Source: Armatimonadota bacterium | Lineage (GTDB): Bacteria; Armatimonadota; Fimbriimonadia; Fimbriimonadales; GBS-DC | DNA length: 64,000 bases | Direction: 5' to 3' | Assembly: GCA_037444405.1 (NCBI GenBank) | Contig: JBBIML010000011.1 | Coordinates: 32,001 to 96,000, forward strand | Shown: positions 1 through 33,157 of the stretch, piece after piece | Layout of the letters: each line of letters opens with the position of its first letter | How positions within the stretch are numbered: the first letter of the stretch is position 1 | Notes under the pieces: model-generated | What the model was told of the DNA's origin: nothing | The model's database searches: none | Seen by the model: the letters and a program-made list of their open reading frames with translations, nothing else | Made by a program: the position numbers and the translations under genes

Positions 1-105
1 CAGGTGGGGTAGCGTGATGCGCCGATTGGTCTGCAGGCGCGGCTCCCAAAACTGGTCGTGTATCTCCACCTGTGTATGTGCAATCGCCCTCGCTTTGCCT
101 GCCAT
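1..105 (-). CDS. 5' end (partial) of probable glycoside hydrolase family 127 (beta-L-arabinofuranosidase-like) protein
   Basis: Own translation from ATG at 105: MAGKARAIAHTQVEIHDQFWEPRLQTNRRITLPHL, resembling the GH127 N-terminal V-x-I-x-D-x-FW-x-PR motif; TATACT -10 (113-118, minus) 7 nt upstream; runs off the window edge. Confidence 0.6.
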   Translation of the reverse strand, partial: MAGKARAIAHTQVEIHDQFWEPRLQTNRRITLPHL

Positions 106-127
106 CGTGAAGAGTATACCTGCTCTC

Positions 128-155
128 TGAAAAATCCCCGCGTTTTTGCCGATAA
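128..155 (+). promoter_or_regulatory. sigma-28 (FliA/SigD)-like promoter upstream of pilus operon
   Basis: TGAAA(128-132)-N15-GCCGATAA(148-155) versus consensus TAAA-N15-GCCGATAA. Confidence 0.5.
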
Positions 156-215
156 TCGAAGCCAGCGTGATGGAAAGAGTGCCAACAGGTTGCCGTCACA
201 GGGAGGCATACGCGC

Positions 216-1031
216 ATGTATGAGGCGTACTGGGGCTTAACGGAACCGCCGTTCACCCTGACCCCCGACCCACGCTTCCTCTATATGAGCAAGGAACATG
301 AGGACGCGCTGGTGATGCTGCATTACACCATCACCCGCAATCGGGGCGCAGGAATGCTGGTCGGCGATATCGGGCTGGGCAAGACGACGCTCAGCCGTAA
401 ACTGCCGGAGCTGCTCGACCCTGTCGAGTACAAAATCGTGCTGATAGTGAACCCCGTGCTGACGCCTATCCAGCTGTTGCAGGAGGTGCTGCACCAGCTC
501 GGCGTGCCCACCATCAGCCGCAATCGGCAGGTGCTGGTTCAGCAGCTGTTCGATCACCTGTTGCAGCTGTATGAGCATGGTCAGCGCGTGGTGCTGATTG
601 TGGACGAGGCGCACCTGATCCGCTCACTCCAGACTTTTGAGGAGTTGCGCCTTTTGCTCAATTGCCAGATGAACGACCGGTTCCTCATCAGTTTGCTGCT
701 GCTGGGTCAGTTGGAGTTGCGCAAGAAGATTGAGCGGGTGCCTGCGCTCAAGCAGCGTCTGGCGGTACGCCATCAGCTGAAACCGCTGGACCAGCAGGAG
801 ACCGCCGCCATGATTGAGTTTCGGTTGCGCACGGCGGGCTACGCAGGCGAGCGTATCCCGTTCACCCCCGATGCGCTGTACGAGCTGTATCAGCACACAG
901 GCGGCTACCCGCGCCTGATCTGCCAGCTCGCCGATAACGCGCTGATGATTGGGATGGCGGAACGCGCCAGCCAGATCGACGGGTTTTTAATGCACAGCGT
1001 GATTATGGACTTCGAGGGCAAGGAGTGGTGA
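216..1031 (+). CDS. ExeA/GspA/MshM-family AAA ATPase
   Basis: MYEAYWGLTEPPFTLTPDPRFLY N-terminus, Walker A GDIGLGKT, Walker B LIVDEAH, GGYPRLI; SD GGAGG upstream. Confidence 0.9.
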   Translation: MYEAYWGLTEPPFTLTPDPRFLYMSKEHEDALVMLHYTITRNRGAGMLVGDIGLGKTTLSRKLPELLDPVEYKIVLIVNPVLTPIQLLQEVLHQLGVPTISRNRQVLVQQLFDHLLQLYEHGQRVVLIVDEAHLIRSLQTFEELRLLLNCQMNDRFLISLLLLGQLELRKKIERVPALKQRLAVRHQLKPLDQQETAAMIEFRLRTAGYAGERIPFTPDALYELYQHTGGYPRLICQLADNALMIGMAERASQIDGFLMHSVIMDFEGKEW

Positions 1032-1032
1032 G

Positions 1033-1461
1033 ATGAACCTGGTGGACGCTATTCGCAAAGCGGCGCAACAGTCGCAGGGTGTGCAGGGTGAGAGCGCAAC
1101 GACCGCGCCTCGTGCGCCAGCCAGCGCGCCCGCAAATGCATCCGACGCCCCTCAGCATGAGCCAGAGGCGATGCAGACCGTGCGCTTCGAGGTGCGGCTC
1201 ACCAATCAGCAGCTCTATGACCTGCTCAGCTGGCTGGCTCGCGCGTTGCACCCTGTGATGACCTTGCGCGAGGCGGCGCACTATCTACGCCTGCGCATTG
1301 CCGAACTCGAAGCGCTCGCCGAGCAGGGAGCCATCCCCGCGTTCAAAGTGGATGGGCGCTGGCGGTTCCTCAAAAATGCGCTCGACGAGTGGATGCTGCT
1401 GCAAAAAGCGAGCGATCTTGAGACCCACCTTGAGGAGAAGGAGGAGAGCCATGCCGCGTAG
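1033..1461 (+). CDS. excisionase-like helix-turn-helix (HTH_17) protein
   Basis: VMTLREAAHYLRL...GAIPAFKVDGRWRFLKNALDEW; tightly coupled to neighbours. Confidence 0.8.
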   Translation: MNLVDAIRKAAQQSQGVQGESATTAPRAPASAPANASDAPQHEPEAMQTVRFEVRLTNQQLYDLLSWLARALHPVMTLREAAHYLRLRIAELEALAEQGAIPAFKVDGRWRFLKNALDEWMLLQKASDLETHLEEKEESHAA

Positions 1462-2674
1462 GAACGAGCCGATTCTGGCGATTGACATCGGCGCGACCGC
1501 TGTGCGTGCCTGCATCGGGCGTCTGAACCCCGACGGGTTGGTTGTGGAGCGTTTGATCGACGCACCCCTGCCTCCCAACAGTGTACGGGAGGGGCTGATT
1601 CTGGAGCCGGATACGGTGGCGCGAGCGTTGCGCACGCTGCTTCAGCAAGTGGGCGTTCGCCAGCGGAACGCGCTGGTCTCGGTCGGCGGTCCGCAGGTGA
1701 CGGCGCGCCCCGTGCGCCTGCCACCGATGACCCCCGAAGTGTTGCGCAAATCAATCCAGTATGAAGCGGCCCGCTACCTGCCCTCCGCTGCTGAAGAACA
1801 TCTGATCGGCTTCGAGATATTGCACAGCGGCGAGGACTATCTGGAAGTGTTGCTGGTGGCGGCGCCGCGCTCCACAGTGGATAGCATAGTGAACACTTTG
1901 GAGAGCGCGGGGCTGGAGGCGGAGCTGCTGGAGATTCAGCCGTTCGCCTGCCTGCGAGCGGTGCATGCGAGCTGGCAGGAGTCGATGCCGTCGCTGTTCG
2001 CGCTGGCGGATATCGGCGGCGGGCACACCCAGATTAGCGTGGTGCGGCAGGGCACGCTCGCGCTCACGCGCTACATCCCCATCGCCGGTGAGACGCTGAC
2101 CGCCGCCCTTAAGGGCTACTTCCACTACTCCGACGAGGAAGTCAGCCATATCAAGCAGGCGTTGAACCTCGAAGAGCTGCTTCAGACGGGCGCGCCCCAC
2201 GAGAATCCGCCTCTGCGCCTGGTGCAGCCCATTCTGGACGAGCTGATTCGGGAGATCCGCCGCTCGCTGAACTACTATCAGTCGCAGGTGCAGGCGAACC
2301 CGGCGCATGGGGGGCGCATCGATCAGCTGATCCTGACGGGAGGTGGCGCGCTCATGCGCGGGATTGCCCCTTACTTCGAACATCGGCTCGGCATCCGCGT
2401 GCAGGTGTTCAATCCGCTGCCGTTCGATGAGCCTCTCTCGACACCGCTTACGCCGCTGCCCGATAATGGGGCTGACCAGCCAGTGGCTGAGGCGTCCCGC
2501 CCCGGTCGGACTTTTGCCGCGGCACGCTCGCTGGTGCATGCATCAGCAGTGCCGCCAGAGCAGTGCGCTCAGGGCGCGCAGTGGGTGGTGGCAATCGGCA
2601 CTGCGCTGGCGCCGCTGGAGCAGCGGATGCCGTTCCGCCTCACCGAAGAGCAACCCGAACTGCAAGCCGCATGA
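1451..2674 (+). CDS. pilM: type IV pilus assembly protein PilM
   Basis: Actin-like motifs LAIDIGATAVR, DIGGGHT, LTGGGA; EIRRSLNYY; start moved to ATG 1451 after GAGGAG. Confidence 0.9.
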   Translation: MPRRNEPILAIDIGATAVRACIGRLNPDGLVVERLIDAPLPPNSVREGLILEPDTVARALRTLLQQVGVRQRNALVSVGGPQVTARPVRLPPMTPEVLRKSIQYEAARYLPSAAEEHLIGFEILHSGEDYLEVLLVAAPRSTVDSIVNTLESAGLEAELLEIQPFACLRAVHASWQESMPSLFALADIGGGHTQISVVRQGTLALTRYIPIAGETLTAALKGYFHYSDEEVSHIKQALNLEELLQTGAPHENPPLRLVQPILDELIREIRRSLNYYQSQVQANPAHGGRIDQLILTGGGALMRGIAPYFEHRLGIRVQVFNPLPFDEPLSTPLTPLPDNGADQPVAEASRPGRTFAAARSLVHASAVPPEQCAQGAQWVVAIGTALAPLEQRMPFRLTEEQPELQAA

Positions 2675-3295: not shown

Positions 3296-4046
3296 CCGAC
3301 GCACGCAGCGATTGGAGCAGTTCGCTAAACTGCTAAGCATCGGGCTGATCGGACTGCTGGCGCTCAGCGTGGGCAGCGTCTATCTACCCTTCAGTATGGT
3401 TCAGCAAGCCCGGCAGCAGGTGGCGGAACGCCAGCAGCAGCTGGACAAAGCGCGTCAGGCGCCCCAGCAACTGCGCCTGCTCCAGCAGCAGCACGAAAAT
3501 GCCTTGCGCGAACTGCGATTCCTGGAGCAGGGCGTCTCGCAAGCTGCGTATATCCCCACCATGCTCAAACAGATCGAGCAAACCGCCCGACAGCTTCAGC
3601 TGGAAATCGTCGCCGTCCGACCCCAGCAGAACCAGCAACAGAGCGGTCAGACCACCCAGAGCGGCTCCAGTCAGGGCAATCAGCAGGGCAACGGCGCCGC
3701 GCCTGCCCGCAAAGCCTATGAGGAGCAACTCATCGAAGTGAGCCTGCAGGGCAGGTTCTGGAGCCTTATGAGCTTCCTGCGCCAGCTGGATGAGTTTCCC
3801 AAGATTCTGGCGGTGCAATCGCTGAATGCGCAGGCGAAACCCAAAATCGACCAGCCGAACGCGAACCCCGATCTGGAGATTCGCATGACGATCAAGGCGT
3901 TCATCTTCCCGTCGACCCGATTGCCGCTTCCCGCTGGTCAGGGCATGCAACCGCCTCTCCCCGGAGGGGAAAGCGCGGGGGTGAGGAACGCTCCCCTCTC
4001 CCACAGCGTGGGAGAGGGGCTGGGGGTGAGGGGTGAAGGAAGGTGA
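3276..4046 (+). CDS. pilO: type IV pilus assembly protein PilO
   Basis: TM plus coiled coil plus G-x-F-x-x-L-x-x-FL PilO-type core; C-terminus encoded by a BoxC-like palindrome. Confidence 0.8.
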   Translation: MAAVALSRRTQRLEQFAKLLSIGLIGLLALSVGSVYLPFSMVQQARQQVAERQQQLDKARQAPQQLRLLQQQHENALRELRFLEQGVSQAAYIPTMLKQIEQTARQLQLEIVAVRPQQNQQQSGQTTQSGSSQGNQQGNGAAPARKAYEEQLIEVSLQGRFWSLMSFLRQLDEFPKILAVQSLNAQAKPKIDQPNANPDLEIRMTIKAFIFPSTRLPLPAGQGMQPPLPGGESAGVRNAPLSHSVGEGLGVRGEGR

Positions 4047-4708
4047 AAATTATGGAAAAACCCCCTGAGATGAAGACGAACCAGATCAGTCTGAAGCAGG
4101 GTCTCGCGATTGGCGTGCTGGTGCTGATCCTGCTCAGCGTTGGGGTCTGGCAGTGGCAGTCGATGGGCGGGCGTCGGAACCCGTCGCGCCCTGCGAGCGC
4201 GTCCACTTCCAACAGCAACATGGGCGTTTCGGCGACTGTCAGCACTTCGGGTGTGGTGCTGGCGAGCGTGCCGCTGGCGCCGCTGCCCGCGCGCGACCCG
4301 TTCCGACCCACCATCCAGATCGGCGAGCTACCCGGTCGCGTGGCGTCGCCTGCCACCAGCAGCACGAACCAATCGCCCCGACGCGCGATCACGGGCACGC
4401 CGCCCGTGCCGCCTGTCGCGCTGCCCGCGCCCGGAGGGCTGGAAATCAGACGCGCAGAAGAGCCTGCCCCCATACCCGACTGGACACTGGTCGGCGTTGT
4501 GCAGGGACCGCGCACGATTGCCATTCTCAAAGATTCGGAGGGGCATCGCCGCTTCGTGCAGATTGGCGACCTGCTGGAAGAGGGCTGGCGTGTGCGCCGC
4601 ATCGAGCGCGGCGTTATCACCCTTCAAAAAGGGAAGCAGACAATTGCCATTCAGGTCGGCACTTCCACGCAACAAGATTCGCAGTCCACAGGAGGCACAC
4701 AGCAATGA
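4043..4708 (+). CDS. PilP/GspC-like pilus assembly protein
   Basis: TM, RDPF motif, LVGVVQG...AIL...VQIGD...V-x-x-I beta-domain; lies between pilO and the secretin. Confidence 0.7.
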   Translation: MKIMEKPPEMKTNQISLKQGLAIGVLVLILLSVGVWQWQSMGGRRNPSRPASASTSNSNMGVSATVSTSGVVLASVPLAPLPARDPFRPTIQIGELPGRVASPATSSTNQSPRRAITGTPPVPPVALPAPGGLEIRRAEEPAPIPDWTLVGVVQGPRTIAILKDSEGHRRFVQIGDLLEEGWRVRRIERGVITLQKGKQTIAIQVGTSTQQDSQSTGGTQQ

Positions 4709-6870
4709 GAGTTATCGGGCGTACTGGATGGATGGTTGGCTTGCTGATTCTGGCGTTGCCGCCCTGCTGGAGCCAGTCGGTGAAAGCGGTCAAAGCCTTC
4801 GAGCAGGGCGGTCAGGCAGTTGTGCAGGTGATCGGTGAGCGATTGCCGCGTCCTGGCGTCTCCGTCTGGCGCGGGCGCTATCTCACGCTCGATTTTCGGG
4901 CGCGGCTCGCCACACGCCGTCAGGAGACCCGCTTCATCACGCCCGTCACCACCTATCTGCGCTACGGTTGGTTCAGCAGCAATCCGCCACGCGTGCGGGT
5001 GGTCATTACCATGCGCGGCACGAAGCCCTATCAGCTTGAAGCGATTGAGGGCGGCTGGCAGGTTCGAATTGGCGTCGCGTCATCCCCCTCATCGGACGCT
5101 GGCGAGCGCACCGCGATCGGCTTGCCCCAGCAAGAGCCGAAGACCGCTGAACCCCAGCCTGCCTCGCAGAAAGGGAGCCGGTCGACTCAGCCAGTAAAAG
5201 AGGAGGGCTGGCAGATTGCGCAGCGCACGGATACGAGCCTCCCGCGCCCGCCACGCCCGTCCGATGTGCAACCGCGCCAGAGCCAGCAGGTGGCAAGCAA
5301 ACCGGCTGGCGCCGCGCCACCGCCTGAGCCAACCATCTCGCTCGACTTCGTGGGCGCCGAAATCGGCGATGTGCTGAAAGCGCTCGCCATCCAGTCGGGC
5401 GCGAACATCGTCACCGCGCCCGATGTGAAGGGCACCATCACCATCAGCCTCAACCGCGTAACGGTCGAAGAGGCGCTCAACCTCATCACGCGCCTCAGCG
5501 GCTACCGCTACGAGCGCATCGCGAACACCTATGTGGTCGGCACGCCCAAATCGATTGAGGCGTTTAAGGGCAGCGAGCCGAAACCAGAGCCGCCGCGCAC
5601 CGCCGAACTGCTGACGCTGAAGCAGGCGAACGCGACAGCCGTCGCCACTTTCTTGAGCGCGCGCTATCCGAACCTCAAAGTGACTCTGCCCGGCGAGAAG
5701 AATGCGAACTACCTGATTGTGGAGGGCGAGGCGAGCGTGGTGAACGAGGCGAAAGCGGCGGTCGCTCGCTTCGAGGAGGCAACCGCTCAGGGCGAGGAGA
5801 TTATCACGGAGGTCTATCGCGTGCGGTTCGCCGACGCGCGCGACTTGATGCGCATTCTGAACCAGCTGGTGCCCACCGTGAGCGTGTCGCTGGGACCGGG
5901 CGCGATGCTGAGCGCCGCGCGCACGGGCAGCGGCGCGAGCAGCACGGCCATGAGCGCCGGCGATATGCCAAACGCGGCTGCCCAGCAGATGGGCGCCGCG
6001 ATGCCCGCCGCCTCAGGCGCCAGCGCCAGCACGGGCGACCAGCCACCCAACCTGCTGGTGCTGATGGGCGCCTCCCGCGATGTGCAACGCGCCCTCGATG
6101 TGCTGCAGAAGGTGGATGTCAAACAGCCACAAGTTCTGATCGAAACGCGCGTGATGGATATCTCCGAAGCCAGCCTGCGCTCGCTGGGGCTGTCATGGAG
6201 CATCTTCCAGTCCAGCAGCATCCAGACGCTGGATCGCACGCAGCAGCCGCCGTTCCCTGCTGGCACCACCGTGACACCGAACCAGCAGGGCATCCGCTTC
6301 AACAAAGATGGGCAGCTCGGCATCGACATCATGGTGCTGAAGCAGCCCACCGATGTGACAGCGACTCTGAACGCGTTGGCGCAGGATCAGCGCAACCGCC
6401 TGCTGGCAAACCCGCGAATCGCCACACTCGATGGGCGACCTGCCCGAATCTTCATCGGCGACGAAATCAACTATGTCAAGCTCATTCAGCAGACCCAGCA
6501 GGGCGCGAATGTGCAGACCGATTCGGTGCAGGCAGGCATCATTCTGGAGGTGCTGCCGCGCGTGCATGAGGACGGCTCCATCACGCTGCAGATTAAGCCG
6601 GAAGTGAGCGTGATTACAGGCTTCCTGCAGGTGCCCGGCGGCGGTTCGCTGCCCCAGCTGGCGCGACGCAACGCCGAGACCACCATCCGCCTCAATAATG
6701 GCGAAACGCTCGTGATTGGCGGGTTGATTCGGGAGAGTGACATCAAAACCATCCAGAAGGTGCCCCTGCTGGGCGATCTGCCTTTCTTTGGCTACCTGTT
6801 CCGCAAGACGAACACCCAGCGCGACCGCTCGGAGATTGTGATCACGCTCACCGTGCGTGTGCTGGAATGA
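4705..6870 (+). CDS. pilQ: secretin (PilQ/GspD family)
   Basis: Signal peptide, AMIN-like N-terminus, ISLDF..AEI.DVL N0 domain, QVLIE, LANPRIATLDG, GETLVIGGL, KVPLLGDLPFFGYLF; real start ATG 4705 after GGAGG. Confidence 0.9.
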   Translation: MRVIGRTGWMVGLLILALPPCWSQSVKAVKAFEQGGQAVVQVIGERLPRPGVSVWRGRYLTLDFRARLATRRQETRFITPVTTYLRYGWFSSNPPRVRVVITMRGTKPYQLEAIEGGWQVRIGVASSPSSDAGERTAIGLPQQEPKTAEPQPASQKGSRSTQPVKEEGWQIAQRTDTSLPRPPRPSDVQPRQSQQVASKPAGAAPPPEPTISLDFVGAEIGDVLKALAIQSGANIVTAPDVKGTITISLNRVTVEEALNLITRLSGYRYERIANTYVVGTPKSIEAFKGSEPKPEPPRTAELLTLKQANATAVATFLSARYPNLKVTLPGEKNANYLIVEGEASVVNEAKAAVARFEEATAQGEEIITEVYRVRFADARDLMRILNQLVPTVSVSLGPGAMLSAARTGSGASSTAMSAGDMPNAAAQQMGAAMPAASGASASTGDQPPNLLVLMGASRDVQRALDVLQKVDVKQPQVLIETRVMDISEASLRSLGLSWSIFQSSSIQTLDRTQQPPFPAGTTVTPNQQGIRFNKDGQLGIDIMVLKQPTDVTATLNALAQDQRNRLLANPRIATLDGRPARIFIGDEINYVKLIQQTQQGANVQTDSVQAGIILEVLPRVHEDGSITLQIKPEVSVITGFLQVPGGGSLPQLARRNAETTIRLNNGETLVIGGLIRESDIKTIQKVPLLGDLPFFGYLFRKTNTQRDRSEIVITLTVRVLE

Positions 6871-24937: not shown

Positions 24938-25672
24938 TCACCATGGTGTGGGCACGCGGCTCGGATCCTCGATCGCCCGTATCTCCGTTTTGATGCCCCA
25001 CTGCTGCAGGTCTTTGACCAGCATTTCGGCTTTTCGGCGTGGCAGGTTGGTCAGAATGACCACGGGCGCACTCTGGAGCAGTTTCTTCACATCGGGTCGG
25101 GTGAGCGTGAGGAACGACTCCAGATGGGCGATGGCTTCTTCTTCCTTCAGGCGTTCCACGCCGAGCAGCACCAGTTCGTAAGGTGTGGGGTCGTCCTGCG
25201 GCAGGGGCATAGAGACCTGTGTTTGTGCGGGGGCGACCACGCTGAACTCGCGCTGGCAATGCTCGCAGATGGCGGTTCGGGCACGGGGTGAGACCTTCTC
25301 GGTGGCGCGGCAGTGGGGGCAGCGCACCGTTACCACCTCCAGCACATGCCCGTTCTCCACCGGCACGAGCCGCCGACAGTGTTCGCAGGTGAAGTCGCTT
25401 TGCGGCGGCGCCACGAACACATTCTCCTTCTGGCAGTAGGGGCAGCTCACGGGATAGGCGGGGATATTGCGCGTTTTATAGAGTGACCAGCCCGCATATG
25501 CCCACGAGCCGAGCCACACCAGCCCGAAACCCCATGAGAAGGAGTGGAACATGCCCCCATAGCGCCAGAACAGCCATGTTAGCAGCAGCATCACCAGCCC
25601 CAGCAAACCATAGATGACGGCTTGCGTGTACTCTTTTTCCACAGCGTCAGAGCGCTTAACTGGCTCTTCCAC
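24938..25672 (-). CDS. membrane protein with two zinc ribbons and L7/L12-CTD-like domain
   Basis: Two TM helices; CPYC, CEHC, CPHC, CEHC; C-terminal KKLLQSAPVVI...AE.LVKDL; GTG start after GGGAGG. Confidence 0.6.
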   Translation of the reverse strand: MEEPVKRSDAVEKEYTQAVIYGLLGLVMLLLTWLFWRYGGMFHSFSWGFGLVWLGSWAYAGWSLYKTRNIPAYPVSCPYCQKENVFVAPPQSDFTCEHCRRLVPVENGHVLEVVTVRCPHCRATEKVSPRARTAICEHCQREFSVVAPAQTQVSMPLPQDDPTPYELVLLGVERLKEEEAIAHLESFLTLTRPDVKKLLQSAPVVILTNLPRRKAEMLVKDLQQWGIKTEIRAIEDPSRVPTPW

Positions 25673-25724
25673 GCTTATCGCCTCCCTGTGGAAAGGGTTC
25701 GACCGACTGCCGCGCGATTCCTGC

Positions 25725-27692
25725 CTATTCCTCCTGACCCTCGTATTTCTCTTTGAGCGCCTGCACGACGGCAGGGTCGGCGAGGGTGGTGGTGTCGCCC
25801 AGCGCACGCCCTTCCGCCACATCGCGCAGCAGGCGACGCATAATCTTGCCACTGCGCGTTTTGGGCAGGTCGGCAGTGAAGATTATATCGTCGGGTCGGG
25901 CAAGCGCGCCGATTTTCGCCACCACATGCTGCTTAAGTTCCTCGCGCAATCGCTCATCGGCGGTGTAGCCCTCTTTGATAATCACGAAGGCAGCCACCGC
26001 CTGGCCCTTGATCTCGTGCGATTTGCCGATGACGGCAGCTTCGGCGACTGCCGGGTGATCCACCAGCGCGCTTTCGATTTCCATCGTGCTGAGGCGATGC
26101 CCCGACACATTGATCACATCGTCCACGCGCCCCAGCAGCCAGAAGTAGCCGTCCTCGTCGCGCTTGGCGCCGTCGCCCGTGAAATAGATGCCGGGGTACC
26201 GGCTCCAGTAGATTTGCTGGAAGCGTTCGGGGTCGCCGTACAGCCCGCGCGTCATCGCCGGCCAGGGGCGCGTCAGCACCAGATAGCCACCCCTGTTCGG
26301 CGGCACCGGGTTGCCCAGCTCATCCAGAATGTCGGGGAACACCCCTGGAAACGGCTTGGTGGCGGAACCGGGCTTGGTCGCCACGATGCCTGGCAGCGGG
26401 GTGATCAGAATCATGCCCGTTTCGGTCTGCCACCAGGTGTCGACAATCGGGCAGCGTCCGCCGCCGATATGCTCGTGGTACCACATCCACGCTTCGGGGT
26501 TGATGAGTTCACCGACGGTGCCCAGCAGGCGCAGACTGCTCAAATCGTGGCGGCGCGGGTACTCTTCGCCCCACTTCATAAAGGCGCGGATGGCAGTCGG
26601 CGCGGTGTACAGAATGTTCACCCGATATTTCTCCACTATCGCCCAGAATCGGTCGCGGTCGGGATAGTCGGGTGCGCCCTCGTAAATCACGCAGGTCACC
26701 CCGTTCGCCAGCGGACCGTACACGATGTAGCTGTGCCCTGTAACCCAGCCCACATCGGCGGTACACCAGAAGATGTCTTCGTCCTTGAGGTCGAAAACCC
26801 ATTTGCTGGTGATGGCGACGCCCACGAGATAGCCGCCTGTGGTGTGCATGATGCCTTTCGGCTTGCCCGTGGAGCCGGAGGTGTAGAGCAGATAGAGCAG
26901 GTCTTCGCTGTCCATCGGCTCTGGCTCGCAGGTGAGCGGCGCGTTCGCCATCAGCTCGTGCCACCAGAGGTCGCGCCCTTCCTGCATCGGCACGGTGTAG
27001 TCGCCACCGATACGCTGATAGACAATCACTTTTTCGATGGAGGGTGTGTTGCGCAGGGCTTCGTCGGCATTGCGCTTGAGCGGCACGATCGAGCCGCGGC
27101 GCCAGCCACCATCGGCGGTGATCAGCACCTTCGCCTGCGCGTCGTTGATGCGGTCAGCGAGGCTCTCCGCGCTGAACCCGCCGAACACCACCGAATGGGG
27201 CGCACCGATTCGCGCACACGCCAGCATTGCAATCACCACTTCGGGGATGAGCGGCAGATAGATACACACACGGTCGCCTTTGCGCACGCCCAGCGCCTTC
27301 AGCACATTGGCAAACTTCTGCACCTCGCGATAGAGGTCGTTGTAGGTCAGCACGCGCTCCTCGCCTGGCTCGCCCTCCCAGATGAGCGCGGCTTTGTTGC
27401 GCCGCCATGTCTTCACATGTCGATCCACGCAGTTGTAGCAGGCGTTCAGCTTGCCGCCGACAAACCACTTCGCATAGGGCGGGTTCCACTCCAGCACCGT
27501 GTGCCATCTCTGATACCAGTCGAGAATCTCGGCGCACTTCGCCCAGAACGCCTCATAGTCGCGCGCCGCCTCTTCATAAATAGCCGCATCGCTGATATTC
27601 GCCTGTCGCACGAACTCTTCCGAAGGCGGGAAGACCCGCTGCTCCTGCAACAACGCCTCAATCGCCATTGTGGTCTGCATCGTCTCCATCAT
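25725..27692 (-). CDS. acs: acetyl-CoA synthetase (AMP-forming)
   Basis: [44 protein letters not shown]. Confidence 0.97.
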
Positions 27693-27795
27693 CTCACCTC
27701 ACAGGGGAACGATTCGCCAGCAGGCAGCCCTTTTCCTGCTTTATCTATGCCTCTGGGGGGCGAAACGGGATTTTTCTCCCTCTTGCAGGGAACTC

Positions 27796-27818
27796 TTGAC
27801 AGAGGTCTGGGGTATAAT
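27796..27818 (+). promoter_or_regulatory. promoter of the ubiquitination-like operon
   Basis: Perfect TATAAT 27813-18; TTGACA 27796-801 lies only 11 nt upstream (non-canonical spacing); SD GAGGTG before ATG 27837. Confidence 0.55.
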
Positions 27819-27836
27819 AGGGGTGAGGTGTTGCAT

Positions 27837-28037
27837 ATGGCAACAAGGAACGCAGTCAAGGAAAAGGTTCGCCTGAACGGCGTCGACTATGAGATCACGC
27901 TGACGCCTGCGACCACGAACGACCCGACCACGCTGAACACGCCGATCACTCCGTCTCAGCCGACCACGCCGCAGGAAGTGGTGCGTCGCGCACCTGCCGT
28001 CACCGAGCTGCCGCGCTGGGAGGACGGTATCGGCTAA
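27837..28037 (+). CDS. 66-aa small protein, candidate modifier/substrate peptide (C-terminal ...WEDGIG)
   Basis: Own -10, SD and ATG; hidden as the tail of shadow ORF 25614..28037; first gene ahead of E2 and JAB-E1. Confidence 0.75.
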   Translation: MATRNAVKEKVRLNGVDYEITLTPATTNDPTTLNTPITPSQPTTPQEVVRRAPAVTELPRWEDGIG

Positions 28038-28067
28038 GCCCTGGATCGCTGTTGCGGGGATGACACC

Positions 28068-28517
28068 ATGAACGCACGCCTGCAGCGGATCGCCTACGAG
28101 GCGGCGCTTGCTGCGACGCACTACTCGCAGACGAAGCAAGCCTCCTATGACGACGAGGACGGGGAGTGGGTCATTATTCACGACTTTCCGCTCCCCCGCG
28201 GCTACAACTACACCACCACCGATGTGCTGATTCTGCTGCCGCGTCACTACCCCCAGACCCCGCCTGACTGGTTCTATGTGGATTACAACCTGCGCTTAGC
28301 GAACGGGCAGCGTCCGCCCCATGTGTTCTATGGCGACACCTCCTATGACCCCAATCGGGGTCAGTTCCGCGAGGCGCCGCCCGCGCTGAAGGGCTGGACC
28401 GCCTGCTGCCTGCACATCCATGAGTGGCGCCCTGCAGCGAACCCGCTGGCAGGGCATTCCCTGCTGAGTGTGTGCGAACTCATTAAGAAGGCGTTTGAAC
28501 GCTGGCGACGCGGGTAG
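28068..28517 (+). CDS. prokaryotic E2/UBC-fold protein (Prok-E2_E/BubB-like)
   Basis: WVIIHDFPLPRGYN...ILLPRHYPQTPPDWFY...GWTACCLHIHEWRP. Confidence 0.8.
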   Translation: MNARLQRIAYEAALAATHYSQTKQASYDDEDGEWVIIHDFPLPRGYNYTTTDVLILLPRHYPQTPPDWFYVDYNLRLANGQRPPHVFYGDTSYDPNRGQFREAPPALKGWTACCLHIHEWRPAANPLAGHSLLSVCELIKKAFERWRRG

Positions 28518-28520
28518 GGA

Positions 28521-30008
28521 GTGGAGCCGTTGCAAGCTCTGTGTGGCGAGGTACGCATCACGCGCACGCTCTGGACGCGCCTCACCGAAGCGCTTCTCGC
28601 TGACCGCTGTGTCGAGACGAAGTGCTTCATGCTGTGTCGCACGCTGGAGCTGCCAGGGCGAGCGGTGTTCCTTGTGCGCGAGCTGGTGGAGGTGCCGCCG
28701 GACGCCTACGAGGAGCGCTCCGCCAACCGCGTCATCACCCGCCCGGAGTTCGTGCATACCTTGCTGACGCGCTGCGAAGCGGAGGGCTGGTCGCTGCTGG
28801 AAGCCCACTCCCATCCGTGGACGCCCCGACCGCGCTTCTCCTCGATTGACCACCAGAGCGACTATCAGAAGTTCCGCGTCACCGAGGTGCTATCGCCCCC
28901 GTTTCGGCACGGCACGCTGGTGTTCGGCTCCGACATGGGCTTCGACGGGCACATGTGGGACTATGCGAACCAGCAGGTGGTGCCGATTGAGCGTATTCGC
29001 ATCGTGGGGCTGCCCTGCGAGACGCGCTATGCGACCGACCTCGCGCCGCCGGAGCTGGACAAAGCCCAGCGGGAGCTGTACGACCGTCAGGTACGCGCGC
29101 TCGGTGTGGAGGGTCAGGCGCTGTTGAGCCACCTGCGCGTGGCGATTGTGGGCGCGGGCGGGCTTGGCTCCCAGATTGCGCAGGCGCTCACCCTGCTCGG
29201 CGTCGGACATCTGACGCTGATCGACCCCGACCGACTGGAGCTGAGCAATCTGAACCGCATCGTGGGCGCCACCTGGTATCGCGCGATTCGGCGATGGCGC
29301 AAGGTGAAAGCGCTCGCGCTCTGGTTCAACCGCGCTCGCAGCCCCGAATGGCGCACCATCACGCCCCTGCCCGCCGATGCGCGCTCGCCTGAACTGCTGA
29401 CCACCCTGCTCGAAAGCGATATGCTGATCGGCGCGGTGGACAGCGCGACCGTGCGCCAGTATCTGAACCTGCTGGCGGTGTGCGCATTAATCCCCTATCT
29501 GGACGCGGGTGTCGGTATACGCGCGGAGGCGGGACGCATCGCGCAGGGCGGCGGACAGGTGCAGCTCATCCTGCCGGGCGAGACCGCCTGCCTCAGCTGT
29601 GTCGGGCATCTGGTGCGCCAGAGCGTGGAAGAACAGCTCACCCCTGAACAGCGTGCCATGTCGATCCAGCATGGCTACATTCAGGGCGAGCGGATACCCA
29701 ACCCGCAGGTGGTGTTCCTGAACGGCGTCGTGGCAAACCTGCTGGTGTGGGAGTTCGTGAAGCTGACCACGGGTTGCCTGCCCGCGCAGCCGTATGTCTA
29801 TTACGACCTGGTGGCACAGCAGGCGTTCCCTGCCGAAGCCGAACGCAATCCGAACTGCTTCCTCTGTTCCTATGAGGCAGGTAGCCTGCTGGCAACCGGG
29901 CTGGACGGCATCAATGGCTACCTGAAGCCGCCCCGCCAGAAGGCGCCGCCCGTGCCACGATCCCGAAGCGAATCTCCATCCCCTGACACGGAGGAGAGAC
30001 CCGCATGA
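28521..30008 (+). CDS. JAB/JAMM peptidase - ThiF/E1 adenylyltransferase fusion
   Basis: JAMM E...HSHP-x7-S-x2-D; E1 YDRQ, VGAGGLGS, IDPDRLELSNLNR, AVDS, CLSC and CFLC. Confidence 0.9.
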   Translation: MEPLQALCGEVRITRTLWTRLTEALLADRCVETKCFMLCRTLELPGRAVFLVRELVEVPPDAYEERSANRVITRPEFVHTLLTRCEAEGWSLLEAHSHPWTPRPRFSSIDHQSDYQKFRVTEVLSPPFRHGTLVFGSDMGFDGHMWDYANQQVVPIERIRIVGLPCETRYATDLAPPELDKAQRELYDRQVRALGVEGQALLSHLRVAIVGAGGLGSQIAQALTLLGVGHLTLIDPDRLELSNLNRIVGATWYRAIRRWRKVKALALWFNRARSPEWRTITPLPADARSPELLTTLLESDMLIGAVDSATVRQYLNLLAVCALIPYLDAGVGIRAEAGRIAQGGGQVQLILPGETACLSCVGHLVRQSVEEQLTPEQRAMSIQHGYIQGERIPNPQVVFLNGVVANLLVWEFVKLTTGCLPAQPYVYYDLVAQQAFPAEAERNPNCFLCSYEAGSLLATGLDGINGYLKPPRQKAPPVPRSRSESPSPDTEERPA

Positions 30009-30421
30009 AGCCAATCCCGGAAAATCGTCGTTGGGTCGAGCAGGGCAAACCGAATCAGTCGCCTCAGCGCATATCGAACGAGTCGATTATAGAGATCGAT
30101 CTTCTTGCTGATGAACTGCTCGCCCTGTTGACGGAGCAACAGGGGCAGGTGCTGGAAGCGGGTGCGCCACTGCTCTTTGCTCGCTATGAGGGCACATGTC
30201 CTGCCTGTCTGCAACCGATTCAACGGGGCGCGCTGATCACGCGCCACGCTCGAAGCGGACGCTGGGTGCATGTGGACTGCCTGAACGCTCCCGTTCAGCA
30301 CAGCATTCTTGCCCGCTATGAAGGCTTCTGCCGCATCTGCCGCCAGACGATCGCCGTCGGCGAACCCATCACCCGCGACACCAACCGCGGCTGGGTTCAC
30401 CTGCGCTGTGTGCAGGGTTGA
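30005..30421 (+). CDS. tandem C-x2-C-x19/20-H-x2-C zinc-finger protein
   Basis: Two repeats ARYEGTCPAC...WVHVDC and ARYEGFCRIC...WVHLRC; ATGA overlap with JAB-E1. Confidence 0.7.
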   Translation: MKPIPENRRWVEQGKPNQSPQRISNESIIEIDLLADELLALLTEQQGQVLEAGAPLLFARYEGTCPACLQPIQRGALITRHARSGRWVHVDCLNAPVQHSILARYEGFCRICRQTIAVGEPITRDTNRGWVHLRCVQG

Positions 30422-30454
30422 TTCCCGCATCACGGGTAAGGTATCCTGCTCTCT

Positions 30455-32041
30455 ATGCAAACTGTTCGGCGTTGCGACCTCCTGCTGCGAGGCGGCACTC
30501 TGTACGACGGCACAGGCGCACCCGCTCAGCGTGGGGATATTGCCATTCGGGACGACCGAATCGTCGCGATGGGCGCGCTGGACGACTGGGAGGCGGGCAT
30601 GGTGGTGGATGTGGCGGGGCTATGCGTGGCGCCCGCCTTCATCGACATCCACACACATTCCGACTTCTCCCTGCCACACCATCCCGAACAGCTGAGCGTG
30701 CTGTATCAGGGCGTGGGCACGCAGGTGGTCGGCAACTGCGGGCTGGGCGTCGCTCAAACCGACACCACCCCCATCTTCCAGCAGGAGCAGCGCTGGCTCA
30801 AGCCTTATGGCGCGGAGATCAACTGGAACAGTTTCGCCGAGCATCTGCGCCAGCTGGAGGAGCGCGGCGTCGGCACCAATGTGATTTTCCTCTGTGCGCA
30901 TGGCACACTGCGCAAGAAAGTGATGGGCTTCGATCAGCGTCGTCCCATGCCCGCCGAACTCGAAGCGATGAAGCGTGAGGTGGCGACCTGCATGGAGGCG
31001 GGCGCGTGGGGACTCTCCACCGGGCTGGAGTATGTGCCCGGCTGCTACGCCGACACGCAGGAGCTGATTGAGCTGGCGACGGTCGCGGCGCAGTACGGTG
31101 GATTCTACGCCACCCATCTGCGCAGCGAGGGCGACCACCTGATTGAGAGCGTGGCGGAAGCCATCGAGATTGCCGAACGCGCCGAACTGCCCCTGCAGCT
31201 ATCGCACCACAAAGCCGAAGGACGCGCCAACTGGGGCAAGGTCAAGCAAACGCTACAGATGGTCTCCGATTCAGTCAAGCAGGGGCTGGATGTGATGCTC
31301 GATGTCTACCCCTACACGGCGTACCAGACCTCGATGGGTGTCGCCTGCCTGCCGAGCTGGGTGCTGAACGGCGAGCCGCAGGCAGTGTATGAGCGCCTGC
31401 GCGACCCTGCAACCCGCGAACGCATCGTGCAGGAGATGCGCGAGCGGCACGACGACTGGAACAGCATCGTGATTGGCTCCGTCGCGGGTAATCGGTCTCT
31501 GCAGGGGCTGACCGTTGCGGAAGCCGCCGCCGCTGTTAGTCAATCACCTGAAGAGTTCGTGATTGACCTGCTGCTGGAGCATGGTCTCTATGTGGGCGTC
31601 GCCTGCTTCCATCTGAGCGAGGATGACCTGCGCATGGTGCTGCGCTATCCGCTCACAATGATTGGCTCCGATGGCGTCGGCTACGACCCGCAAAAGATGA
31701 GCGCGGAACGCCCCCACCCGCGCAGTTATGGCACTTTCCCGCGCGTGATCCGACGCTATGTGCGCGAAGAGGGGCTGCTGACGCTGGAGGAAGCCATCTT
31801 CAAGATGACGGGGCTGCCCGCTGCCCGACTGGGACTCACGGATCGCGGCACCCTGCATGCAGGCGCGTATGCCGATATTGTGGTGTTCGATGATGCCCGA
31901 ATCGCCGACCGCGCCACCTTCCGTGAGCCGCACCAGCTGTCCGAAGGCGTGGTCCATCTCATCCTCAACGGGCGCTGGGTGCTGAGCGACGGGCAGTTCA
32001 CCGGCAACCGCGCCGGCAGAATCCTGCGCAAGGGTCACTGA
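30455..32041 (+). CDS. N-acyl-D-amino-acid deacylase (amidohydrolase)
   Basis: PAFIDIHTHSD, VGNCG, GLSTGLEY, HLRSE, IGSDG, HPRSYGTFPR. Confidence 0.92.
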   Translation: MQTVRRCDLLLRGGTLYDGTGAPAQRGDIAIRDDRIVAMGALDDWEAGMVVDVAGLCVAPAFIDIHTHSDFSLPHHPEQLSVLYQGVGTQVVGNCGLGVAQTDTTPIFQQEQRWLKPYGAEINWNSFAEHLRQLEERGVGTNVIFLCAHGTLRKKVMGFDQRRPMPAELEAMKREVATCMEAGAWGLSTGLEYVPGCYADTQELIELATVAAQYGGFYATHLRSEGDHLIESVAEAIEIAERAELPLQLSHHKAEGRANWGKVKQTLQMVSDSVKQGLDVMLDVYPYTAYQTSMGVACLPSWVLNGEPQAVYERLRDPATRERIVQEMRERHDDWNSIVIGSVAGNRSLQGLTVAEAAAAVSQSPEEFVIDLLLEHGLYVGVACFHLSEDDLRMVLRYPLTMIGSDGVGYDPQKMSAERPHPRSYGTFPRVIRRYVREEGLLTLEEAIFKMTGLPAARLGLTDRGTLHAGAYADIVVFDDARIADRATFREPHQLSEGVVHLILNGRWVLSDGQFTGNRAGRILRKGH

Positions 32042-32059
32042 GGTTTGATACCAATCGGG

Positions 32060-32137
32060 CAGTCCGCGTATCACGGGCTTGCCGTGACAGATGTTCGGGT
32101 CACGCGTGATTCGGCTCAACGGCTCGTTTGCTTCCAT
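32060..32137 (-). pseudogene. truncated DUF433-family antitoxin
   Basis: MEANEPLSRITRDPNICHGKPVIRGL is the DUF433 N-terminal signature; similarity stops after about 26 aa. Confidence 0.6.
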
Positions 32138-32185
32138 CAGGTATCTCCCGCTATCTTTGCGCCAGTTGCTGTCTGGTGAGGAGTT

Positions 32186-33157
32186 TCACTCGCTTTGAGG
32201 CGGTTCGGGCGCGCGCTCGCGGCTGGGTTCGGGTGCCAGGCGCTCGATGCGTACCTGCACCTGCACCTCGCGCGCGCCAATAATCTCGACCCCGCGCGGC
32301 ACCTGCAGCGGCACTTTGAGCGTGGCGTCCTGCGTCAGGTTGCGAAGCGAGATGGGCGCGGTCTCGATCACATTAATCTCCTTCAGGCGACCGGGGCTGC
32401 CCCGCACCTGCACCGCGACTGGCTCCACCGCGAACCATGCCACCCGATAGGGGAACTGGGGCAGCTCGCCCAGTCGCGGGCTGACCGGCACCGTCTTGAC
32501 CGTCGGCTGCGGGATCAAGCGTAGTTTAAGGCGCACGCTCGCCGGGTTCAACTGCACGCTCAACACGGGGTTGCCCGCGCTATCTAATGCCATCGGGGTG
32601 ATGTCCACTTCGATATCACCCTGCAAGCCTGTCAGGTCAAAGGGCACCAGCACCTGCTGGATGCGGCGCACTTCGCTCACCGTGCCGCTCACCCGAATGC
32701 TGCCAGGCTCCGTAAAAGCCTCTGCCAGCACCTCGCGCACTTCGGGCGTGCCCGTGAGGCGCACGCGCACAGGCAGCTGGCGCGTCAGGCGCGGCTCGAT
32801 CATCACCCGCACGCGCTGTCGCTCCGCCTGCAAGCTCAACTCACCGTTCCAGCCCGGCGGGTACTGCAGGGTGATGGGCAGCCAGTTCTCGCCCGGCTTC
32901 GCCATGCGCAGATCGACGGCGGCGCGAATGCGATCCGCGCTGGTTGCCTCCACCACCTCCTTGACCCCACGCAGCGTGACGCGCACGCGCGGGCTACCCT
33001 CCAGCCGCACCTCGTATCCAGCGGGCGCGTTCAGCAACTCAATCGGCACTTCGTAGGCGCGCTCCACCATCGGGTGCAGCTGCGACTGCACATACAGCAC
33101 CAGCACGATCGCGATAATCAGCGAGCCAATCTTCTCGATAAGGTTCTGTCGTAGCAT
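32186..33157 (-). CDS. cdaR: CdaR/YbbR regulator of diadenylate cyclase
   Basis: N-terminal TM, three YbbR-like repeats, directly downstream of cdaA. Confidence 0.85.
   Translation of the reverse strand: MLRQNLIEKIGSLIIAIVLVLYVQSQLHPMVERAYEVPIELLNAPAGYEVRLEGSPRVRVTLRGVKEVVEATSADRIRAAVDLRMAKPGENWLPITLQYPPGWNGELSLQAERQRVRVMIEPRLTRQLPVRVRLTGTPEVREVLAEAFTEPGSIRVSGTVSEVRRIQQVLVPFDLTGLQGDIEVDITPMALDSAGNPVLSVQLNPASVRLKLRLIPQPTVKTVPVSPRLGELPQFPYRVAWFAVEPVAVQVRGSPGRLKEINVIETAPISLRNLTQDATLKVPLQVPRGVEIIGAREVQVQVRIERLAPEPSRERAPEPPQSE

Follow-up and report, generated by a model that had tools for sequence, protein, structure and literature searches.

Among the described systems, the closest to the operon treated here are the Bub operons of bacteria (Ye, Gong, Chambers and Corbett, 2024), a family that corresponds to class '6e' of Iyer, Burroughs and Aravind (2006) (PMC1779556, PMC11601596). 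In Type I Bub, BubAB is a fusion of the ubiquitin-like protein (Ubl) with the conjugating enzyme (E2), and BubCD joins a JAB/JAMM peptidase to a homodimeric ThiF-type E1. The JAB domain cleaves BubAB directly behind a conserved Gly, the Ubl so released, which has one to three beta-grasp domains, is activated and conjugated via Tyr and Ser oxyesters, the DUF6527 protease BubE is always present, and the Ser of the E2 is described as invariant (PMC11601596). We have analyzed a gene for a peptide of 66 amino acids (aa) and the three genes following it in 64,000 nucleotides (nt) of DNA from an Armatimonadota bacterium (GenBank assembly GCA_037444405.1, contig JBBIML010000011.1, positions 32,001 to 96,000), which are called the window below. 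The four genes, for the peptide, an E2 of the Prok-E2_E family, a fusion of a JAB domain with an activating enzyme (JAB-E1) and a tandem zinc-finger protein, form an operon that by sequence comparison is a member of the 6E/Bub family, because the closest solved relatives are BubCD and BubB of Citrobacter. The peptide is best explained as the functional counterpart of the Ubl BubA in a diverged conjugation operon of the Bub/6E type, and is probably a modifier precursor without a beta-grasp, which the JAB domain would trim after Gly64, and which the E1 would then adenylate and hand on to Cys114 of the E2.

The likeness to the Citrobacter Bub system extends to the JAB-E1, in which the homology runs through the entire protein and includes the catalytic residues of JAB and the Tyr of the crossover loop, and to a Prok-E2_E-type E2 with His two residues after the nucleophile. 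As in Bub, the modifier gene lies immediately 5' of the E2 and has a conserved Gly followed by extra residues, and this Gly with its disposable extension mirrors BubAB, which is cut by BubCD right after the conserved Gly (PMC11601596). Unlike the Bub modifier with its one to three beta-grasp domains, the modifier here is a peptide of 54-78 aa without a beta-grasp, it is a separate open reading frame (ORF) and not fused to the E2, and the nucleophile of the E2 in the window is Cys instead of Ser. The present operon differs also in having no BubE, in a tandem zinc-finger protein as its fourth gene product and in its ordinary metabolic neighbours.

Pup of actinobacteria is a largely disordered modifier of about 60 aa that has no beta-grasp, and it is ligated via its C-terminal Glu side chain by the glutamine-synthetase-like PafA, with no E1 or E2. 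The peptide is similarly short, largely disordered and non-beta-grasp, but, unlike Pup and UBact, has a conserved Gly at its functional end, no C-terminal Gln or Glu, and an E2 and a JAB-E1 as neighbours. MccA is a heptapeptide that ends in Asn and is found without E2 or JAB; the MccA/MccB pair is similar in that a ThiF/E1-like enzyme acts, here by proposal, on the C-terminus of a short unstructured peptide, and dissimilar in that BubCD is a far better match to our E1 than MccB. The '6e' class likewise includes a small zinc-binding protein in the operon, but its defining member is a protein built of one to three beta-grasp repeats of 70-75 aa, its E2-like domain is described as being without Cys, where the present E2 has Cys114, and its zinc protein has the pattern C-x3-C-x35-38-H-x2-C, in place of two C-x2-C-x19-20-H-x2-C units (PMC1779556). 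In the ubiquitin operon of the archaeon Caldiarchaeum, a JAB/Rpn11 enzyme matures the precursor, as is proposed here, and E1, E2 and a small zinc-finger protein are encoded together; its modifier has a true ubiquitin fold and its zinc protein is a RING E3 (PMC6043591, PMC5654768), neither of which was established for the present operon. A literature search returned only two Bub preprints of the Corbett laboratory and no peptide-type modifier or operons of these Armatimonadota, within a scope that did not cover supplementary lists of 544 operons, which might include them.

Conceptual translation of 27837-28037 on the forward strand gives a TAA stop (28035-28037) after exactly the 66 residues read in a preliminary description of this DNA, which was made from the sequence alone, and the ORF with TATAAT, GAGGTG and ATG noted there is confirmed by translation and coordinates. 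Because the frame stays open for 807 codons (25614-28037) and the stretch upstream of the ATG is antisense to an acetyl-CoA synthetase gene (25725-27692, reverse strand), the start was assigned from the Shine-Dalgarno (SD)/ATG pair and conservation, not from ORF length. In the relatives, every intact copy of the peptide gene has an ATG start preceded by a G-rich SD-like run.

Of 28 further genomes of the same Fimbriimonadales family, 24 carry the E2, and it was found in none of 32 genomes sampled from four more families within the order. At all 20 loci listed in the family survey, an ORF ending in ...PRWEDG plus 2-4 residues lies just 5' of the E2. A separate scan of one genome per species, covering largely the same genomes, gave 31 loci, 30 of them from records of Armatimonadota, Fimbriimonadales or Armatimonadetes metagenome-assembled genomes; a homologous small ORF stands immediately 5' of the E2 at all 31, and it is intact in 30. 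When metagenomes were searched from the peptide side, an E2 (about 50% identity) and a JAB-E1 (52-54%) were found directly downstream in three of three loci. In a phylum-wide sample, relatives of the E2 were found in 14 of 401 genomes, and two distant Armatimonadota loci with an E2 about 48% identical (L057 and L058 in our numbering) encode peptides of 54 and 57 aa upstream of it. Peptide and E2 are separate ORFs, with a gap of 30 nt in the window and of -4 to +87 nt in relatives.

The ratio of nonsynonymous to synonymous substitution rates (dN/dS) of the peptide, calculated from 31 distinct nucleotide sequences, is 0.28 overall; it is 0.19 both in the block of residues 7-24 and in that of residues 47-64, and the linker has 0.43. 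Since all four Gly codons are in use at position 64 (GGC 11, GGG 10, GGT 6, GGA 4), the codon pattern is direct evidence of selection at the protein level, though the loci are kin. On these comparisons the 66-aa ORF is a real gene under purifying selection, and its proposal as a candidate modifier peptide of an E2/JAB-E1 operon has been supported by both linkage and conservation. Searching a protein collection with the peptide returned only its exact self and one nameless NCBI protein of 69 aa (P0005), while a profile search of 1.84 billion representative proteins gave 16 matches at E<=1e-3, among them one spurious repeat protein and three apparent frameshifted fragments.

In an alignment of 30 distinct peptides, E9, V11, N14, P24, N28, P53, L58, P59, W61, D63 and G64 (codon 28026-28028) are invariant. 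The preliminary description had suggested looking upstream of homologous E2 genes for a conserved C-terminal motif, and such a motif exists: the Gly of ...LPxWEDG is kept in all 46 distinct family members pooled from all sources. The residues after this Gly are unrelated in sequence and number none (5 members), one (5), two (23), three (9), four (3) or six (1), and the five members ending exactly at ...WEDG include L057, L058 and three distant matches of the profile search. Because the Gly is invariant in 46 of 46, is followed by 0-6 variable residues and ends five members, the functional C-terminus, as read from the alignment, is Gly64 and not Gly66. A Gly that never varies, followed by an extension that may be absent and is free to change, is the typical sign of a modifier precursor from which the extension is cleaved. 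The earlier suggestion that JAB trims Ile-Gly to expose ...EDG fits this pattern, as well as a complex model, described below, in which residues 50-64 are seated in the JAB groove.

An AlphaFold2 (AF2) model built with a 30-sequence alignment has one beta-hairpin, with strands at residues 7-13 and 16-22 and a predicted local distance difference test score (pLDDT) of 89 for the block, and beyond it the chain runs extended, with no secondary structure assigned (mean pLDDT 74; predicted template modelling score 0.27). This matches the anatomy of hairpin, Thr/Pro linker and tail given in the preliminary description, and the structure prediction called for there yields one hairpin plus an extended chain. 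In the model, then, the peptide has no beta-grasp and appears as a hairpin with a mostly unfolded chain. The linker has 9 Thr and 6 Pro among its 24 residues, and it carries indels between relatives. We also considered the peptide as a shrunken beta-grasp that kept the first hairpin and the tail, and rejected this for want of sequence support (hhalign, 0.2%). Residues 5-40 have a marginal match (E 0.004) to PDB 2jhe_A 144-179, a hairpin of the TyrR N-terminal (PAS) domain, and the two hairpin patterns have probably converged.

The slot of the peptide is occupied, in further Armatimonadota operons of this family, by a beta-grasp Ubl of the Multi_ubiq type: it is a protein of its own in L064-L066 (Multi_ubiq matches of 1e-14 to 1e-17) and in L062, where it ends in GG plus one residue, and is fused to the E2 in L061 and L063. 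Multi_ubiq has no match in the window's own genome, which is 98.9% complete, while a positive control matched in four of five other genomes. One genome (G067) holds a canonical Bub set with Multi_ubiq and DUF6527 on one contig (C36) and a peptide-type operon on another (C37, locus L057), and from this genome, which has both sets, it follows that the canonical and the peptide-type operons can coexist.

The E2 matches Pfam PF14462 at 4.2e-14 (52.8 bits, cut-off 25), and the best solved relative of its profile is Citrobacter BubB (9eae_C, E 7.3e-7). C113, C114 and H116 are invariant in nine sequences (residues 113-116 lie at 28404-28415 in the window), and C114-x-H116 aligns with S-x-H of the Multi_ubiq-linked E2s. 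The column of C114 is Cys in the window's family, L055, L060, L061 and L063 and Ser in L053, L057, L058 and the canonical L064-L066, the His being always two residues on; because Cys and Ser swap here as they would at a nucleophile position, the column is taken to be that position. With Cys at this column, the branch need not be confined to the chemistry described for Bub, which proceeds by oxyesters only. A search for longer homologues of the E2 found no fused peptide-E2 form at E<=1e-3, which is weak evidence.

For the JAB-E1, Pfam gives a ThiF match of 2.9e-36 and misses the JAB peptidase in the N-terminal third. Citrobacter BubCD (9ea4_A) matches with E 9.7e-24 over residues 12-425 of the query and 10-408 of the chain, and E32, H96, H98, D110 and GY386 align with it; the Tyr of the crossover loop corresponds to BubCD Y370, the numbering of the chain being offset by 2 from that of the paper by our own count. 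Other PDB matches are MoeB (1jw9_B, E 1.4e-16) and MccB (3h5n_A, E 1.9e-5). Among 18 sequences, S107 of the JAB part never varies and E32, H96, H98 and D110 each show a conservation of 90% or more, and in the E1 part GxGGxG, R189, N245-R246, K261, D307 and G385-Y386 are invariant. PADLOC assigned only generic E1-E2 models, on the E1, and had no match for the peptide, the E2 or the zinc-finger protein. In an unrooted tree of 15 JAB-E1s, from which L063 (partial), L060 (no E1), L059 (broken) and the majority of the close relatives were left out, 10 peptide-linked enzymes stand opposite five beta-grasp-linked ones with a branch support of 100/99, which is consistent with a single origin of the peptide type.

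One complex prediction was made, of the JAB-E1 (18-row alignment) with residues 1-64 of the peptide (28 rows) and ATP. The interface score ipSAE was 0.80, 0.65 and 0.77 (median 0.77), as against 0.00 for the best control, and the mark used was reached by 116 of 157 solved complexes and by 2 of 215 mismatched pairs, a calibration that is rough here, where our own alignments and a ligand were used. In the best run, residues 50-55 and 57-64 lie against JAB residues 32, 34, 69-86, 94, 96, 107, 109-110 and 113-124, which form the active-site groove, so that the interface includes E32, H96, S107 and D110; D63 is beside H96, and W61 is packed on residues 72-78 and 117. The model supports recognition of the tail by the JAB peptidase and is silent on the adenylation site.

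On this basis, the JAB domain would bind the tail, cut after Gly64 and remove Ile65-Gly66, as the comparative data and the complex model suggest. The ThiF-type domain, whose adenylation motifs are intact and whose homology is to BubCD, would adenylate the carboxylate of Gly64, and the peptide would move via Tyr386 of the crossover loop to Cys114 of the E2, according to the alignment with Y370 of BubCD and S333/H335 of BubB. The final step would be a transfer of the peptide to an amine on some target.

Several observations weigh against this reading. Pfam has no family for the window's peptide at E<=0.01, nor for five other members at E<=1, a PDB profile search with the peptide alignment found no Ubl, and hhalign comparison of the peptide profile with three beta-grasp Ubls of related operons gave a probability of 0.2%. 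To our knowledge, the known E1s recognize the globular beta-grasp body of a Ubl, and the peptide has one hairpin. In the complex model, the best run seats the tail in the JAB site and not in the adenylation site, and the runs share at least 0% of their contacts with a partner pLDDT of at least 49, so the fold of the bound peptide is uncertain; since complexes of JAB with Ubl tails have already been solved, the ipSAE value may reflect likeness to those structures. No BubE/DUF6527 was found in the operon proteins or in the 98.9%-complete genome, with a control that matched in Caulobacter. Apart from a few outliers, all relatives belong to a single bacterial family, so that their counts are not independent. 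A premature in-frame stop is present at codon 17 of the L044 peptide (3400-3612), there is a stop also in the JAB-E1 of L033, and the sequencing runs for the locus are four DNA runs of one study, with no RNA run.

Some of these points would suit a peptide that binds the JAB-E1 or the E2 and is never conjugated, being a pseudo-substrate, an inhibitor or an assembly cofactor by which the enzymes are regulated, with the true substrate elsewhere. The tail docked in the JAB groove instead of the adenylation site and the lack of a beta-grasp body for E1 recognition both favour such a role, and the IPxNRRW motif of the fourth gene product, which resembles LPRWEDG, could compete for the groove. However, an invariant Gly with a disposable tail of 0-6 residues is expected of a C-terminus that is cleaved and activated and not of a simple ligand, the genome yielded no alternative Ubl candidate (Multi_ubiq), and conservation extends to the adenylation residues, to Tyr386 and to the nucleophile of the E2, so we hold this explanation to be unlikely. 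E1-like enzymes are able to adenylate peptide C-termini, and the presence of MccB among the PDB matches of the E1, together with the short, unstructured nature of the peptide, would agree with a precursor of the microcin C type or of the ribosomally synthesized and post-translationally modified peptide (RiPP) type, whose C-terminus is activated by the ThiF-type enzyme in making a modified small molecule. This alternative of the preliminary description is disfavoured and we regard it as quite improbable, since the invariant C-terminal tail and the variable middle reverse the layout of leader and core, an E2 that keeps its nucleophile-x-His is always adjacent, the neighbourhood has no conserved transporter or tailoring gene, and the best homologues are BubCD and BubB, not MccB.

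The preliminary description had also allowed that the E1 adenylates the encoded C-terminus, Gly66, directly and without trimming. The window's peptide does end in Gly, but residue 66 is Gly in only 2 of the 30 aligned sequences, those of the window and a relative of the same genus, elsewhere the last residue of the tail is F, Y, R, C, N, E, A, H or I, and five members have nothing beyond the conserved Gly; little credence can be given to this possibility. Equally remote in our estimation is a ThiS/MoaD-type sulfur carrier that would bear a thiocarboxylate on its C-terminal Gly, to which the ThiF-type E1 with MoeB among its PDB matches would be suited, and the N-terminal V-x-V-N-G hairpin presumably recalls ThiS-like starts. 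The peptide has neither a beta-grasp nor Ubl homology, a dedicated E2 and JAB are present, and no conserved adjacent genes for a sulfurtransferase or cofactor biosynthesis were found, all of which argue against a sulfur carrier. Coordinates of the features are listed in Table 1.

Table 1. Features of the peptide operon and its surroundings in the window (positions count from the first letter of the window).
Feature	Position	Strand	Basis
Promoter-like region: GGAAC box 27789-27793 and TATAAT 27813-27818	27789..27818	+	sequence; putative function
Shine-Dalgarno-like GAGGTG, 6 nt before ATG 27837	27825..27830	+	sequence
66-aa peptide gene (proposed modifier precursor), stop included	27837..28037	+	sequence, conservation
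Residues 7-22, conserved beta-hairpin (VKEKVRLNGVDYEITL)	27855..27902	+	AF2 strands; invariant E9, V11, N14
Residues 23-46, Pro/Thr-rich variable linker	27903..27974	+	composition, indels, dN/dS 0.43
Residues 47-64, conserved tail ...APAVTELPRWEDG ending at invariant Gly64	27975..28028	+	alignment, model contacts
Residues 65-66 (Ile-Gly), variable extension, predicted to be removed	28029..28034	+	tail comparison
149-aa E2 (Prok-E2_E), C113-C114-L-H116 at nucleophile position, C114 codon 28407-28409	28068..28517	+	Pfam, profile
495-aa JAB-E1 fusion: JAB ~1-170, ThiF-type adenylation ~187-446, Tyr386 codon 29676-29678	28521..30008	+	Pfam, profile
138-aa protein: N-terminal MKPIPxNRRW 30005-30034, helix, zinc fingers 30197-30280 and 30329-30409	30005..30421	+	alignment, AF2
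528-aa amidohydrolase (Pfam Amidohydro_3), probably outside the system	30455..32041	+	neighbourhood comparison

Upstream of the ATG, a TA[TC]AAT box lies at a distance of 24-41 nt in 22 of 31 distinct upstream regions, and that of L040 has a match at -84 only. A scan with the consensus promoter found no sigma-70-type site on the forward strand, and TTGACA (27796-27801) is just 11 nt from TATAAT. In most relatives, a GGAAC(T/C)TTT box is found about 19 nt before the GGTATAAT box (upstream regions of L023-L052), and since this spacing is not that of canonical -35/-10 elements, the box may be the site of a dedicated regulator or of an alternative sigma factor. Rfam had no match at E<=0.1 across 27000-32500.

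Partial copies without the JAB-E1 were also found, of which L039, L043, L050 and L052 consist of peptide, E2 and zinc-finger protein, and L040, L041 and L049 of peptide and E2 alone, so that peptide and E2 stay paired in all of them. For six of the seven, the full operon is also present in the same genome record, and for L050 none was found among the loci retrieved. The in-frame stop of the L033 JAB-E1 (4486-5928) and a split E2 with TAG in L059 point to possible decay; together with the stop in L044, they may be due to decay or to assembly errors.

The fourth protein of the operon has two C-x2-C-x19-20-H-x2-C (CCHC) units and a variable helix, and its AF2 model has a pLDDT of 83. Its Pfam matches are weak and below cut-off (DUF2175, zf-ANAPC11, PHD and DUF7837), and a Foldseek search of the PDB with the zinc-finger model gave nothing at E<=0.001. 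The best rows were zinc fingers of PARP-1, LIM and RING domains at E 0.03-0.6, and since the RING-like rows had E 0.1 or worse, its assignment as a RING E3 was not established. In the window's family, the protein begins with M-[KR]-P-I-P-x-N-R-R-W (MKPIPENRRW in the window), where P3, I4, P5, N7, R9 and W10 are invariant in 12 sequences. At the distant loci the protein encoded after the JAB-E1 is otherwise unrelated, one being with a single transmembrane-like hydrophobic segment and one being hydrophobic, Gly-rich and apparently multi-pass, both as judged by eye, and yet it begins with ...IPINRRW... or ...IPFNPRW.... The gene after the JAB-E1 thus always opens with IPxN[RP]RW (30005-30034 in the window; L053:5895-6596, L055:5038-6144, L056:2966-4072), a motif that resembles the modifier tail LPRWEDG. 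IPxNRRW may be a docking or acceptor element, and, speculatively, the fourth gene product is a candidate adaptor or target.

The amidohydrolase gene that follows in the window is found, among 31 related loci, only in L023 of the same genus. In 10 loci the operon is flanked by diverse genes of metabolism and housekeeping, and no CapW/BrxR or CapH/CapP regulators were found near the operon in these 10. DUF6527 adjoins the JAB-E1 in the canonical Bub loci of three other Armatimonadota genomes and lies elsewhere in G067. At L047, a gene for RtcB RNA ligase (1-2415, reverse strand) that is split by an intein (Pfam RtcB 1.6e-106, Intein_splicing 5.8e-13) lies a few kb from the operon. A protein atlas search gave no usable match.

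It is possible, with a likelihood that we would put slightly below even, that this operon is the first ubiquitin-type E1-E2 cascade with a mostly disordered, non-beta-grasp modifier of about 55-65 aa, which would be recognized mainly via its linear LPxWEDG tail and its hairpin and matured by the JAB domain of the E1 itself. The modifier would then be Pup-like in form and ubiquitin-like in chemistry. The operon shares the E1 and E2 families of Type I Bub and departs from the described Bub systems in four features, the lack of a beta-grasp Ubl, of a Ubl-E2 fusion, of a Ser nucleophile (in this lineage) and of BubE; at the nucleophile of the E2, Cys and Ser alternate even between close relatives. 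Because 24 of the 28 other family genomes carry the system and its neighbours are ordinary metabolic genes, it may serve for housekeeping protein tagging and not be a mobile module of phage defence.

E1 enzymes are taken to depend on the beta-grasp body of the Ubls that they act on, and, if the proposal is true, a natural E1-E2 pair working on a near-linear peptide would reveal how small a part of a modifier is required. It would also link Pup-style disordered tags with ubiquitin-style chemistry and would provide a minimal peptide-ligation system derived from a thermophile. Since the family is small, the hypothesis is directly testable with four recombinant proteins. The Bub family would be extended to members in which the E2 nucleophile is Cys or Ser, BubE is dispensable, and the operon is stably inherited within a lineage, outside obvious defence islands.

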